Positions 53,283 to 63,790 of a stretch of 64,000 bases of DNA are shown one piece after another (the first letter of the stretch is position 1; each line of letters begins with the position of its first letter). Under the pieces are notes generated by a model. It did no database searches. It had not been told where the DNA came from and worked only from the letters and a program-made list of their open reading frames with translations. Source of the stretch: a virus; the IMG/VR virus record IMGVR_UViG_3300029118_000005; one strand, written 5' to 3'. A program made the position numbers and the translations under genes.

Positions 53283-53315
53283 TAGGGATAGAATCAAATC
53301 TATCCCTATTATTTT
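53283..53315 (+). terminator. intrinsic terminator
   Basis: TAGGGATAG aatcaaat CTATCCCTA followed by TTATTTT. Confidence 0.7.
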
Positions 53316-53380
53316 ACAGTTCTTGACAGTATTTTACATTACTTTACATTATTATACATTATTTTACATTAAAATAATGT
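53311..53380. repeat. 10-bp phased iteron array A (7 units)
   Basis: attttacagt tcttgacagt attttacatt actttacatt attatacatt attttacatt aaaataatgt. The last unit is inverted, giving ACATTaaaaTAATGT. Confidence 0.8.
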
Positions 53381-53386
53381 CAAAAT

Positions 53387-53545
53387 CTATCGGCTTTTCT
53401 TACGGCGCTGCTTCTGCCTCTGCTGTTTGTATTCGGTTCTTATGACTGTGATATTTCCGACAGTTTCCTCAGTTCTGATTCGCTTCAAACTGCCAACATA
53501 GGTTATTATGCTGATTTCGTGTTTTTTTCCACTTCTACTACCCAT
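53387..53545 (-). CDS. possible 52-aa basic protein (below ORF-track cutoff)
   Basis: GAGGGGA RBS, and the ATG lies 1 nt after the DUF4417 stop. My translation is MGSRSGKKHEISIITYVGSLKRIRTEETVGNITVIRTEYKQQRQKQRRKKSR. Confidence 0.35.
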   Translation of the reverse strand: MGSRSGKKHEISIITYVGSLKRIRTEETVGNITVIRTEYKQQRQKQRRKKSR

Positions 53546-53546
53546 A

Positions 53547-54188
53547 TCATCCCCTCAACTTTCTCGTAAGCTGCTGTCCAAATGATTCTCGATACGTAAT
53601 TTTTACATCTGTGTCCACATCAATAGGGCGTCCAACGACTAAAATTTCTGTTGGATGGAGCCGGGAACACATTTCTTTGAAGCCCTGTCGATAACACTCC
53701 TTGCCTTGATCGGTAAAGCAGCCGTTTGTGCTGACTGCCAGCGTACTCTCTTCTGGCAGCCCTTCAAAACAAAACTCAAACGTCTCTGTGCTTCCCCAAC
53801 CTACAGTTGGGATGGCGTTACAACCGTTCATAAATAGCCACCATGCCAGGGCACGGCTTCTGTACACTTGATGCAGCTGCATGACCTTTGGCATAGAGTC
53901 GTAGAACGAGAAGTCAGGAGCGCAGACATATTTGAAATTTTCAAGCATTGGAAGATACTTTTGCGGTTGATTCCATAATGGCTCGAACCGTGCATCATCA
54001 ATAAAAAAGTGGCAAAGCGCCTTCTTCGGATTTTTTTCTTTCACCGCCTCACAAAATGATACTGCATTAAGCCCACTCAGAGAAGCGTGTACTGGGAGCA
54101 GTTTTGGAAATCCCAGTGGAGTAAGTTCGGATTGATAAAGATATCGCTCACGGAGAACGTCTTTTTGCGTGTGAATCTTTGTGTACAT
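53547..54188 (-). CDS. DUF4417 domain protein
   Basis: Start trimmed to MYTKIH. CHFFIDDARFEPLWNQPQKY ... CAPDFSFYDSMP ... VYRSRALAWW fits the DUF4417 pattern. Confidence 0.6.
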   Translation of the reverse strand: MYTKIHTQKDVLRERYLYQSELTPLGFPKLLPVHASLSGLNAVSFCEAVKEKNPKKALCHFFIDDARFEPLWNQPQKYLPMLENFKYVCAPDFSFYDSMPKVMQLHQVYRSRALAWWLFMNGCNAIPTVGWGSTETFEFCFEGLPEESTLAVSTNGCFTDQGKECYRQGFKEMCSRLHPTEILVVGRPIDVDTDVKITYRESFGQQLTRKLRG

Positions 54189-54243
54189 CTGCCTTCCTTT
54201 CTGGCACATTGCCTAAAGTCATGCGTGTACTGTGATCTTTATT

Positions 54244-54582
54244 TTATGCACAGTACCTAGTTGTATTGTTTCCTAAAAGTTGATATATAAGTTCGTCTGC
54301 AACAGTTACTATACTCCTGCCAAAAAGACTTATAAAGTCTGCGACAATTTCCTCTGTTTCAATCGGGATAGAGTATCCATATTCCATTGCGTGAACATGT
54401 GTTAATTCGTGGCACAGCACTTTATCAATCATCTGGCTTGACAGATCATTACACATAAAGACGGTCTTTAAATTGTTGTCGGTTACACCGAGAGTATATG
54501 TTCCGTCACTGCGCTGCAACTGCGGATCGCCAGGATTGACAAAGCAAACTTGCCAAGTGTTGTTATTTACTGTAAAAAACAT
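54244..54582 (-). CDS. small HExxH zinc-metallopeptidase-like protein
   Basis: Start trimmed to MFFTVNN. Has the VLCHELTHVH motif. Same layout as 38085..38450. Confidence 0.5.
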   Translation of the reverse strand: MFFTVNNNTWQVCFVNPGDPQLQRSDGTYTLGVTDNNLKTVFMCNDLSSQMIDKVLCHELTHVHAMEYGYSIPIETEEIVADFISLFGRSIVTVADELIYQLLGNNTTRYCA

Positions 54583-54666
54583 TTGATACCCCCCATTATA
54601 GCACATTTATAGCAAGTGCGCAATTGAAATAAAACCGGGAGCATTTGCTCCCGGCTGTACCATTGA

Positions 54667-55377
54667 TTATATACGCTGTACCCAGTTTGTCATCTTGGTT
54701 TTCATCATTGTTTTTTCGGAAGCTGAAAGCCCTGGCATGATCTCTTTAAGATCTTCGTCAATGACGGCCAGCAAGGACTCAAGCCCTCGCATGTTTGCGT
54801 CATTGTCTTCTTTGGTGTTAGCTTTGTGCATGTCCTTAGTCTCACTGTATGACCTTCTAGCACGGTCATATCGGCTTTCTGACTTCATTCCCATATCTTC
54901 TACACTTCTACCATCTGACGGCATTTGGGAGCCTCTACGTGGGTCAGAGTAGTACATGCGCCCAAAGCGGAGTCTATCAAGATCACGCATACGCTCCTCT
55001 TCTGGCATGTCAGCCCATTCGTAATACATCTCTGGTGTCATGTGCCAATAAGGTGGCTCGTCATAACCACGTCTACCTATGGTTCTTGTACCTCTACCCT
55101 TTGGGGCGAATCTGCCGTTAGCATATCTGTAGCGGTCGTAATAGCGTCGTGACGGGTAATCACCGTATTGCTCAACCATTTCCATGATTTCGTCATCGTT
55201 TTGCAGCTTATCCATTGCCTCAACGATGCGATAATCTTTGTCAAAGCAAGCAATGTTCTTAACAATTTCGGTCCAATCTTTTAAATCATCAAGATTCTGA
55301 CCTTCGAAATTATCAATTCCGATAGTTTTGGCTTTTTCTTTGACACATTCCAAAATCTCTTTAGCCCATTTATGCAT
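54667..55377 (-). CDS. hypothetical protein with R/Y/D/M-rich low-complexity centre
   Basis: 236-aa ORF. The central region reads SRRYYDRYRYANGRFAPKGRGTRTIGRRGYDEPPYW. Confidence 0.5.
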   Translation of the reverse strand: MHKWAKEILECVKEKAKTIGIDNFEGQNLDDLKDWTEIVKNIACFDKDYRIVEAMDKLQNDDEIMEMVEQYGDYPSRRYYDRYRYANGRFAPKGRGTRTIGRRGYDEPPYWHMTPEMYYEWADMPEEERMRDLDRLRFGRMYYSDPRRGSQMPSDGRSVEDMGMKSESRYDRARRSYSETKDMHKANTKEDNDANMRGLESLLAVIDEDLKEIMPGLSASEKTMMKTKMTNWVQRI

Positions 55378-55390
55378 AGTCTACCTCCAA

Positions 55391-62167: not shown

Positions 62168-62296
62168 TTAATAAGTCAATGTTTCTTCCAGTCTAGTTTC
62201 CTCTACTGGAGTTGCGTCTGGAAAATCTACGAACTCCAAATGGTAGCAATTGCCACAGTTTTTTAATGTGGCTGGATAAAAGTATCTTTTTTCCAT
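62168..62296 (-). CDS. possible 42-aa protein (below ORF-track cutoff)
   Basis: GGAAAGAGGA RBS. My translation is MEKRYFYPATLKNCGNCYHLEFVDFPDATPVEETRLEETLTY. Confidence 0.3.
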   Translation of the reverse strand: MEKRYFYPATLKNCGNCYHLEFVDFPDATPVEETRLEETLTY

Positions 62297-62371
62297 AAAT
62301 CCTCTTTCCACGCCCTGTTAGACGCTTTTTTATTTGCCTTGCTGAGATTTTTTATAATCTTTCGGTCACAA

Positions 62372-62698
62372 TCACAACCAGCAGGCAAAACCCGCCTTCC
62401 GAAGGTACTTTTCTCTATCCATTCGGAAATCCCTTCGTGGCAGGTTCTTATTTATGCTTTCTAAGTATGCCTTACGACAAGCGTCTGTCGTGAGTTTCTT
62501 TGATAGATAGTCGTAGCAAAGACCCCACCCATCAAAAAAAACATTGACACTTTCGAGAGCCGCTATAACCTCGGACTCTGTTTCTGCACCCTTGCTTGCG
62601 GCAATTATCTCGTCGCAAGTTTTGGTGTACTTGTCATGCTCTCGGTACTCCTCAAACACATTTACAGTAAAAGCATCTTCTCTCATAACAAACCTCAT
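62372..62698 (-). CDS. hypothetical protein
   Basis: 108-aa ORF with a GGGGAG RBS, downstream of parA. Confidence 0.45.
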   Translation of the reverse strand: MRFVMREDAFTVNVFEEYREHDKYTKTCDEIIAASKGAETESEVIAALESVNVFFDGWGLCYDYLSKKLTTDACRKAYLESINKNLPRRDFRMDREKYLRKAGFACWL

Positions 62699-62796
62699 TT
62701 CTCCCCGTTTTGGCGATAGGACACCAGTTATTATTATTTGTTTTGCGTTGTGGCTATAACCACGTTTCCGCCAATAAAAGATATATTTAATATCCC

Positions 62797-63564
62797 TTAT
62801 TGGCAGAATCTAAGTAGTTCTTTTGTGAACTGCATATAGTCAATGGCAGCGTTACACTTTGAATCAAATTTCATGAGAGTTGTTCTGGTTGCCTGTGCCT
62901 TTTGTACAGCAATGCTTTCACGAATAGTTGTGCAAAAAACCTTTGTGTTGAGCTGCTTGGCAATTTCTTCTAAAGAATTTTTAACTTCCTGAGCGAGGAG
63001 TTGACGGCTCTTATATTTTACTAGTAAGAGTCCTGCAACCTCTAGGTTAGGATTATTTCTTTTCTTTACGCCTGTGATGGTTCTGTTAAGTTCTGAGAGG
63101 CCTTGAATAGCATAACGGTCTGCAGTGACAGGAATGATGACTTTGTTAGAAGCAATTAAACAGTTTTTAAGCAATTTGTTGTCAGCCGGAGCTGTATCAA
63201 TAATAACATAGTCATAGCCAGTTAATTCAGCAAGAGCATCTTTTAGTCTAAAATACTCGTTCCCGTCACTTGGGAATCTTTGATCTGCTGTTTTCAGCTC
63301 TGGATCGGATGCGACTATGTCACCGATTTCTGTTTTTTGAATAGCTTCCGCAATTGGAAGTGGATCTTCAATGTCTAAAATAACATCGTAGAGAGTTGCC
63401 GTATCTTTGGATACTGCTCTATAAGTATCAGTGCTGTTACCCTGCGGATCAGCGTCAACCAGTAAGACCTTCTTGCCTTGCGACATTAAAATTGACGCAA
63501 GTGTAGTGGCTGTTGTGGTTTTTGCAATGCCGCCTTTTTGATTTGCAATGCATATTACTTTCAT
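62797..63564 (-). CDS. parA: ParA/Soj-family partition ATPase (short, type Ib-like)
   Basis: Deviant Walker A NQKGGIAKTT. Also VLLVDADPQGNST and VIIDTAP. 255 aa with no N-terminal HTH. Confidence 0.85.
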   Translation of the reverse strand: MKVICIANQKGGIAKTTTATTLASILMSQGKKVLLVDADPQGNSTDTYRAVSKDTATLYDVILDIEDPLPIAEAIQKTEIGDIVASDPELKTADQRFPSDGNEYFRLKDALAELTGYDYVIIDTAPADNKLLKNCLIASNKVIIPVTADRYAIQGLSELNRTITGVKKRNNPNLEVAGLLLVKYKSRQLLAQEVKNSLEEIAKQLNTKVFCTTIRESIAVQKAQATRTTLMKFDSKCNAAIDYMQFTKELLRFCQ

Positions 63565-63580
63565 TGTGAAACCTCCTTTG

Positions 63581-63650
63581 TGATTACATTATTCTACATT
63601 ATTTTACAATTCTTAACCCAATTTGACATTTCTTTACAGTAAAATAATGT
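63581..63650. repeat. 10-bp phased iteron array E (about 6 units) upstream of parA
   Basis: tgattacatt attctacatt attttacaat tcttaaccca atttgacatt tctttacagt aaaataatgt. Confidence 0.75.
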
Positions 63651-63679
63651 TTTTTCCTTTCTCAGTTATAGCATACATT

Positions 63680-63720
63680 GTTAGAACTAAAAAGTCAATA
63701 GTTAGAACTAAAAAGTTATA
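63680..63720. repeat. two tandem ~21-bp repeats GTTAGAACTAAAAAGT(C/T)(A)ATA
   Basis: gttagaactaaaaagtcaata / gttagaactaaaaagttata, located between arrays E and F. Confidence 0.7.
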
Positions 63721-63743
63721 AAAAATATCTTTAAGGTTATACG

Positions 63744-63790
63744 TGTGACATTTCTTTACAGTAAAATAATGTTAAAAAATGTTGTAAAAA
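63744..63790. repeat. 10-bp phased iteron array F (about 4 units)
   Basis: gtgtgacatt tctttacagt aaaataatgt taaaaaatgt tgtaaaaa. Positions 63747-63774 duplicate 63624-63651 of array E. Confidence 0.7.

Follow-up and report, generated by a model that had tools for sequence, protein, structure and literature searches.

Near one end of a 64,000-nucleotide stretch of viral DNA (IMG/VR record IMGVR_UViG_3300029118_000005; the whole stretch is called the window below), six intergenic clusters of a 10-bp repeat lie dispersed over 10.5 kb, in an arm that also encodes a ParA-type ATPase and a small protein predicted to adopt a ribbon-helix-helix (RHH) fold. What are these arrays for, and which protein binds them? 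The window is a Rep_3 phage-plasmid, since it carries the genes of a tailed phage (SPP1-type portal, terminase, an endolysin-like protein, five tRNAs) together with a Rep_3 plasmid initiator gene (30302..31477, + strand) and repeats just upstream of it; an open reading frame (ORF) of 1854 amino acids (aa) has a size typical of tape-measure proteins. ParA systems require a centromere in cis. In those of type Ib, an RHH partner binds the array of short repeats that constitutes the centromere, contacts ParA via its N-terminus and represses promoters overlapping the arrays (PMC9499535; PMC3130281). We consider it rather probable that the six arrays act in cis for a type Ib-like partition system on this element, because a small ParA, an adjacent RHH gene and flanking phased arrays are found together down to RHH homologues of 34-53% identity.

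A position weight matrix of 10 columns was built from 34 hand-read units and used with a score cut-off of at least 7. Its information is concentrated in A2, T4, G5, T6, A8 and A9, and the unit consensus is WAMTGTHAAR. The window contains 180 matches, 61 of them at or beyond 53300. Clustering (at least 3 matches within 25 bp) recovers six phased arrays; the one further cluster, at 30213, is unphased and due to chance. A period of 10 is assigned to all six sites by Tandem Repeats Finder, and the lag-10 autocorrelation in a 50-bp window reaches at least 36 matches only at 53312 and 57790. A first-pass annotation, made by eye from the letters, had listed these six clusters and had recommended a motif scan with a 10-bp autocorrelation test. 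That scan gives 21 same-strand pairs exactly 10 bp apart, whereas 200 first-order Markov simulations gave 0.17 on average and never more than 3; no such pair lies outside the six arrays in the window. Chance or an artefact of composition is ruled out by the simulations and the autocorrelation. The clusters are thus confirmed, and so is the claim that the arm alone holds them, the other 53 kb of the window being free of arrays by matrix and autocorrelation. An Rfam scan over the arrays found no families.

The arrays share a grammar: units of one strand, an AAA spacer, then at least one inverted unit. Where units meet head to head the offset is invariably 13 bp (TTTACAKTA-AAA-TAATGT). Arrays A, E and B (the last read on the - strand) have the common layout of six units, AAA and one inverted unit, which is degenerate in B; array B is an inverted copy of E, with 80% identity over 69 nt. 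One degenerate unit with TTAACCC stands in phase in each of D and E. Direct and inverted contiguous units therefore both occur among the six dispersed sites.

Array A (53312..53384; six - strand units, AAA and one + strand unit, TAATGTCAAA) has matrix matches at 53312, 53322, 53332, 53342, 53352 and 53362 on the - strand and at 53375 on the + strand, and counts 6.4 copies of period 10. As had been noticed before, it sits at a convergent gene junction: the + strand block ends at 53275 with an HNH-like gene (52367..53275), and every gene from 53387 past the window end is on the - strand. Between the HNH-like gene and the array lies a bidirectional intrinsic terminator (53283..53308), a 10-pair stem followed by a T-run on the - strand and, by direct reading, on the + strand. 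Array B (57788..57850; six + strand units, period 10) separates a helix-turn-helix (HTH) gene from the operon 57661..53387. Array C (59664..59716; two - strand units, AAA, three + strand units) is directly upstream of a Cas8e-like gene; clustering gives 59664-59706, extended by eye to 59716, so that of the earlier array coordinates all six sites stand and the right end of C moves from 59692 to about 59716. Array D (61721..61783; three - strand units, the degenerate TTAACCC unit, two + strand units) begins 3 bp past the stop of the RHH gene. Array E (63582..63654; three - strand units, the degenerate TTAACCC unit, two - strand units, AAA, one inverted unit) lies between a predicted parA promoter and the parA ribosome-binding site, with 63582-63644 found by clustering and the inverted unit extending to 63654. 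Array F (63744..63786; two - strand units, AAA, two to three + strand units, period 10) comes immediately after the hairpin of the upstream gene's terminator, about 60 bp ahead of the predicted parA promoter.

Helically phased repeats on a plasmid might also be replication iterons. This is ruled out for the TAATGTAAAN arrays because the Rep_3 gene has iterons of its own beside it, 22 bp x 3.8 at 30128-30210, of different sequence and 22-33 kb away from the 10-bp arrays. Together with a 12-bp x 3.8 repeat they form a block of perfect direct repeats at 30037-30210, which with the Rep_3 gene is likely to be the plasmid origin.

Relatives of the element come from human gut metagenomes; near-identical DNA among GenBank phages and PLSDB plasmids amounted to one unannotated 4.3-kb gut phage fragment and no plasmid. 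In 66 IMG/VR contigs with RHH proteins 92-100% identical, the arrays, F included, are present at corresponding positions in all 66; their absence from syntenic relatives, which had been named as an outcome that would speak against a function, is not the case. The exact 18-bp junction core is confined to the arm in these contigs, and all of them are free of arrays in the 9 kb past parA. Array length varies solely by whole 10-bp steps, thus the register is kept: array A measures 25, 55, 65, 75 or 85 bp, array C exists in 49-bp and 69-bp versions, and the left part of array E has 19 or 29 bp, a copy-number polymorphism of one unit.

The gene content around the arrays is less stable. Among 12 close relatives compared by BLAST, the RHH gene is adjacent to or overlaps parA in all 12. 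The window has a private cassette of 635 bp there (62176..62811, - strand, with a 108-aa ORF at 62372..62698), absent from that place in all 12; in two relatives (loci of relatives carry L numbers here; L031 and L057) it follows array D, and for this reason it appears to move as a unit. The cassette with a 166-aa gene is lost or replaced in relatives, one breakpoint falling inside array D (61731-61737). Two relatives, L022 and L038, have a D-C fusion whose parts overlap by 15 bp in a shared unit, both intervening genes being lost, and the array map of L030 suggests the same fusion. The majority of breakpoints are outside arrays (62176/62811, 61167-61177, 56786/56787, 58104/58108, 55822/55825), and cassettes inserted in relatives carry no arrays along. 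The arrays thus do not mark every boundary. The first-pass annotation overstated the case in placing them at every operon boundary of the arm, for the gaps 54607-54666 (which contains a terminator), 55814-55932 and 61157-61205 and the 62176-62811 insertion are without one.

The parA gene (62797..63564, - strand) encodes a 255-aa Walker-type ATPase with a deviant Walker A motif (KGGIAKT, residues 10-16) and without an N-terminal DNA-binding domain, as expected of type Ib. It matches Pfam AAA_31 (1.2e-46), also CbiA, and PHROG 164 ('ParA-like partition protein'). Among solved structures it aligns over its full length best with a ParA family protein (8ray, 4e-40) and Soj (1wcv, 2.7e-30); delta of pSM19035 (2oze) scores only 9e-10, and ParF is likewise more distant than 8ray and Soj. 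The RHH gene (61786..62154, - strand) encodes 122 aa with a basic N-terminus (MRKKD), a linker and a C-terminal RHH region at about residues 78-122. On its own the protein has only a sub-threshold Pfam RHH_5 match. Against solved structures the single sequence found nothing at E-values up to 10, and a profile found no RHH protein, omega and ParG included. An exhaustive HMMER search yields about 25 homologues at 34-53% identity. AlphaFold2 with 12 near-identical sequences gave a poor model (predicted local distance difference test, pLDDT, 51), and an alignment of 23 diverse sequences was used instead; this model has a mean pLDDT of 83, above 96 for residues 81-120, and shows an extended segment followed by two helices. 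Foldseek places CopG (1ea4) at the top (probability 0.99, target TM-score 0.80, root-mean-square deviation 1.3 A), followed by Arc, RHH antitoxins, NikA and PutA-RHH, with E-values all above 0.1, the domain being small. Across 23 family members there are 13 Pfam matches to RHH families, all with weak E-values: NikA-like (7 members), RHH_1 (3), RHH_5, TacA1, DUF6290 and ParG, the last in one distant member only (E = 0.0054). On the strength of the model, the Foldseek ranking and the Pfam matches of the family, the product is an RHH-fold protein. In the alignment the basic N-terminus (MRKK/MARxK) and a Y..YY.P.PK.G..GG.LGR motif are conserved and the linker is variable. By sequence the protein stands outside the omega and ParG families and would belong to an undescribed RHH family. 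Its gene contains a run of eight A (coding strand, 62046-62053). A word-based homologue search returned only the same phage group and frameshifted 67-aa variants, which make up six database clusters (P0016-P0021) and diverge exactly at this tract; they may reflect slipped-strand on/off variation of the RHH protein or homopolymer sequencing error.

Distant relatives were drawn from metagenomes and Clostridia genomes. The Clostridia genomes are of Oscillospiraceae, Lachnospiraceae, Ruminococcus, Eubacteriales and Butyrivibrio; GTDB genomes hold no close RHH homologue, and a distant-homologue profile found Clostridia metagenome-assembled genomes and one Butyrivibrio isolate there. In the distant loci that have both genes the RHH gene is adjacent to or overlaps parA, so that a small gene for a candidate centromere-binding protein directly downstream of parA, typical of type Ib, is found in the relatives. 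In 11 of these loci (the HTH homologues of L182-L189, L191 and L192 among them) the next gene encodes a protein of 72-85 aa homologous to the HTH protein of the window (57858..58091, - strand; 77 aa, XRE/Cro-type, in 'transcriptional repressor' families of PHROG). Since the three genes stand in succession there, we read parA-RHH-HTH from the gene orders as the ancestral module, into which cargo has been inserted between RHH and HTH in the window. Ten of the 11 loci have 10-bp phased AT-rich arrays upstream of parA, after RHH or sometimes after HTH, with units such as ACATTATAAT, AAATTATAAT and TAATGTATTT. Upstream of parA the lag-10 identity is 0.58-0.73, compared with about 0.28-0.47 at lags not divisible by five. 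Arrays are placed behind a TTGnnn-17-TATAAT promoter and ahead of the parA ribosome-binding site, also in the RHH-HTH gap, and in L184 (as palindromes), L185, L189 and L192 after the HTH gene too. Arrays on both sides of parA-RHH are thus common to the window and its relatives, and the earlier proposal that the arrays belong with the ParA/RHH pair is borne out by this linkage.

The first-pass annotation had left the choice of binder between the RHH and the HTH protein. It is unlikely that the HTH protein binds the arrays as repressor of the arm, with the TTTACAKTA-AAA-TAATGT core as its dimer operator. Its gene, the conserved third member of the module, has arrays on either side in most relatives, PHROG labels its family as transcriptional repressors, and a clear palindromic head-to-head core is seen in four of the six arrays; against this, five to six direct repeats in 10-bp register would be unusual for a dimeric Cro-like HTH protein. 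Moreover, arrays and HTH genes come apart. In L190, parA-RHH lacks an adjacent HTH gene, yet an array and a terminator come after it at a convergent junction, a placement which parallels array A. L258-L260, near-identical and counted as one case, have an HTH homologue (34% identity) behind an ordinary promoter without parA, RHH or arrays. The unit type also tracks the beta-strand of the RHH protein. L192 has the strand of the window (RKIQFSVSCT) and units that are TAANGTA-rich and TTATAAT-poor, relatives with ...TCT strands have TTATAAT-rich units, L185 and L186 have very different strands and differing units, and L184 combines an S-to-N change in the strand with a different palindromic site. 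The HTH protein of L192 is 31% identical to that of the window and resembles those of L185 and L186, and the recognition helices of these three are alike despite different repeat units. Because of these dissociations and the co-variation with the beta-strand, the RHH protein is the much better candidate binder and the HTH protein the less supported one. The comparison suggests that the arrays go with parA-RHH rather than with HTH.

In the partition reading, one RHH dimer would bind each 10-bp unit and, with one unit per helical turn, all dimers would lie on one face of the DNA; binding would be cooperative over 4-7 contiguous units, direct or head-to-head. The conserved basic N-terminus would stimulate the ParA ATPase, so that each array could act as a centromere, and the RHH-coated arrays would serve ParA-driven segregation of the plasmid-prophage. 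Bound arrays would at the same time mask promoter elements or occupy 5' leaders. Thus parA may be autoregulated via F and E, which flank its predicted promoter, while D, B and possibly C may gate the units downstream of them, as omega does in pSM19035. The silencing of accessory cassettes put forward at first pass is likewise an inference. Array A at the convergent junction would be a centromere-only or boundary site.

Instead, the arrays could be protein roadblocks of the stoperator kind, or insulators between transcription units, with partition using another site. We hold this to be quite improbable. In its favour, the - strand holds every gene from 53387 to past 64000, the arm has no more than two predicted intrinsic terminators, and arrays D, C and B stand between successive co-directional units without a preceding terminator. 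Against it, array A follows the last gene, where no roadblock is needed. Stoperators of cluster A mycobacteriophages are single asymmetric repressor sites of 13-14 bp, spread over the genome in one orientation relative to transcription. The arrays here are tandem, of mixed orientation and limited to 53.3-63.8 kb, so their anatomy does not fit the stoperator-like polarity control that had been offered as an alternative. A partition system would in addition need a centromere elsewhere, and near parA the only other repeat family is a single 21-bp doublet.

This doublet is tied to the predicted parA promoter (63670..63698, - strand, TTGACT-17-TATGCT), which lies between F and E and is set within two 21-bp direct repeats (63677-63718), 100% conserved in relatives. 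As an alternative dispersed site the doublet (core GTTAGAACTAAAAAGT) was rejected, as it occurs in the window only at 63680-63716. It may be the site of another regulator, e.g. the HTH protein. In distant relatives the corresponding place holds another doublet, TTTTCACTTG. A promoter at the predicted place would put array E in the leader of parA, like the arrays of the relatives.

All promoter calls in this study come from consensus matching. The unit itself resembles a -35 box in reverse (TTTACA/TTGACA) and a -10 box in the forward sense (TAATGT), and TTGACA-N16-TAATGT arises because a 23-bp offset across the junction joins the two readings. The exact arrangement occurs three times, in A(-), D(-) and E(+), compared with 0.1 expected. 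Array F(+) has a GTGACA version, and array B has TTGACA-16-TATTCT on the - strand (57809..57782); those of D(-) and B(-) point toward downstream genes. The copy in array A (53383..53356, - strand) runs straight into the terminator; speculatively, transcription from it could give an RNA about 65 nt long that consists of array units and the terminator. Of the promoter-like arrangements that had been reported in B, D and E/F, those in B, D and E are present with TTGACA, F has only the GTGACA version, and E and F face away from parA.

Might the arrays then be transcription signals without a dedicated binder, that is stacked sigma-A hexamers or UP-like curved A/T-tract DNA once per helical turn? 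T4 and A4 tracts do recur every 10 bp on direct reading, the units look like -35 and -10 boxes (TATAAT in relatives) with TTGACA-N16-TAATGT in excess, and the first TATAAT unit of the relatives lies 17 bp past the TTGnnn box upstream of parA. Array A and the array of L190, by contrast, are at convergent junctions with no gene after them, which bears out the earlier remark that the repeats are not simply promoters, neither array being at a gene start. Units are of mixed orientation as against uniformly - strand genes, promoters have no need of six to seven phased copies, the copies and their register are conserved, and even in distant elements the arrays go with the ParA-RHH pair. Hence we regard this explanation as very unlikely. 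Least credible of all, and very improbable, is that the arrays are modules for recombination by which related phage-plasmids swap or delete cassettes: the D-C fusions and the breakpoint within array D are as expected of it, but most breakpoints lie off the arrays, incoming cassettes are array-free, the strict 10-bp register and the ParA-RHH link are left unexplained, and dispersed repeats of any kind are expected to recombine as a side effect.

Several observations also weigh against partition sites bound by the RHH protein. The promoter-like arrangements in E(+) and F(+) point away from parA, and the consensus scan found no convincing -10 box before the Cas8e gene at array C. Several gene boundaries within the arm are without arrays. 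The module of L184 has spaced palindromes, AAAATAGWCTATTTT, at the same three positions and not tandem 10-bp units. The co-variation of unit and beta-strand comes from few independent lineages, and the HTH gene accompanies the module in most loci. Finally, the sequence of the RHH protein does not significantly match omega, ParG or any of the solved structures.

By analogy, the functionally closest known system appears to be omega/delta/parS of pSM19035 from Streptococcus pyogenes (inc18 family). Its six parS sites each consist of 7-10 contiguous 7-bp units, direct and inverted, which overlap promoters, and the one protein omega is centromere binder and global repressor (PMC9499535). The comparison with omega made at first pass is apt in view of this description of parS (PMC9499535). 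Both systems pair a small Walker-type ParA with a small RHH protein whose N-terminus is flexible, and in both several dispersed sites of contiguous short non-palindromic units, direct and inverted, overlap promoters (here predicted ones), with comparable run lengths (4-7 units here, 7-10 in pSM19035). They differ in that the unit here is 10 bp, one helical turn, and not 7 bp, that there is no detectable sequence similarity to omega and that ParA is nearer to the Soj type than to delta. Here, moreover, the system resides on a tailed phage-plasmid of gut Clostridia, a third gene (HTH) is conserved, one array is at a convergent junction, and the arrays are interleaved with swappable cargo.

ParF/ParG/parH of TP228 is a type Ib system in which the centromere parH, about 100 bp long and located upstream of the operon, consists of degenerate short boxes with AT-rich spacers, and ParG is an RHH centromere-binding protein which also autoregulates (PMC3130281). 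It shares with the window the small ParA-superfamily ATPase and the RHH protein; parH, however, is a single site of tetramer boxes and not six sites of 10-bp units. In par2 of pB171, parC1 lies upstream and parC2 downstream of parA-parB, ParB is an RHH protein, and the 6-bp motifs are limited to the par locus. Repeat arrays on both sides of the operon are thus shared (E/F and D here), whereas pB171 has no arrays several kb away among cargo genes. The type II ParR-parC systems of pSK41 and R1, where RHH dimers bind tandem repeats with 10-11 bp per dimer in a continuous array, have a similar spacing of about one helical turn, but their NTPase is the actin-like ParM instead of a Walker ParA and their single centromere is upstream of the operon. 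In the KorB/IncC system of the IncP plasmid RK2, scattered sites of a partition protein, some at promoters, couple segregation to global control. The sites here are likewise scattered through the element, some at predicted promoters and some not; unlike the RHH candidate on tandem arrays, KorB is an HTH ParB that binds single 13-bp palindromes. The differences from known systems (10-bp unit, host, HTH, cargo, convergent array) leave the kind of system unchanged.

A more far-reaching version of the partition reading, which we think is doubtful, would see the arm as a plug-in regulon. One partition protein would hold a swappable cargo arm, including a solitary Cas8e as a possible decoy, under segregation-coupled control in the plasmid-prophage; arrays recombining with one another would cause cassettes to be reordered or lost, array A would mark a boundary or provide a second centromere, and the HTH protein would be a third, so far undescribed component of ParA-RHH systems.

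The variable cargo from array D to array B (58092..61706, - strand) is made up of genes that are present, absent or replaced among relatives. It comprises the 166-aa ORF (61206..61706, - strand), a 484-aa ORF (59702..61156, - strand; PHROG 11092) and a full-length solitary Cas8e/Cse1 homologue (58092..59651, - strand; Pfam CRISPR_Cse1 7.7e-70, PADLOC Cas8e 5.2e-68). The Cas8e gene sits between array C and the HTH gene, whose start abuts the Cas8e stop codon; some relatives (L005, L014) have it replaced or truncated. The phage has a further solitary Cas8-like gene, belonging to another subtype, at 51332..52261 (+ strand); its 309-aa product corresponds to the N-terminal approximately 200 residues of Cas8c/Csd1 (Pfam 1.4e-18, PADLOC 7.9e-29). 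No other cas genes were found among the ORFs screened in the window. The solitary Cas8e could be a CRISPR decoy or an anti-CRISPR. Below array B an operon of eight to nine ORFs (53387..57661, - strand), flanked by arrays B and A, includes DUF4417 nuclease-like and Zn-protease-like proteins. In the literature we found nothing specific on this module in gut phage-plasmids or on solitary phage Cas8.

The gene upstream of parA (63830-64000, - strand) runs past the window end. Its counterpart in relatives encodes 676 aa (L003 6740-8770), with an SMC_N/RecF-like ATPase N-terminus by a weak Pfam match and a C-terminus which by eye is like sigma-70 region 4 or a LuxR-type HTH. Outside the arm, Rfam detects a type II hammerhead ribozyme (49906-49972, + strand, 52.4 bits, gathering score 37) just upstream of the + strand gene block beginning at 49985, and an int-alpA RNA (40140-40207, - strand, 50 bits, gathering score 35.8) that adjoins the cluster of five tRNAs (40210-41477). 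The 1854-aa ORF contains a 63-bp x 5.1 tandem repeat (15826-16149), and the intergenic region 46494-46742 is complex and AT-rich with overlapping repeats.

The general picture of type Ib systems is unaltered by these results. If the partition reading is true, it would define an uncharacterised family of RHH partition proteins without a Pfam model of its own, recognisable by the Y..YY.P.PK.G..GG.LGR motif, and a 10-bp centromere/operator code used in phage-plasmids, plasmids and conjugative-type elements of gut Clostridia. Cargo resembling anti-defence genes (the solitary Cas8 genes) would then be part of the regulon of a partition protein. The maintenance systems of the elements of gut Clostridia are almost unstudied, and the parS/ParB pair would be usable for stable vectors in these bacteria.

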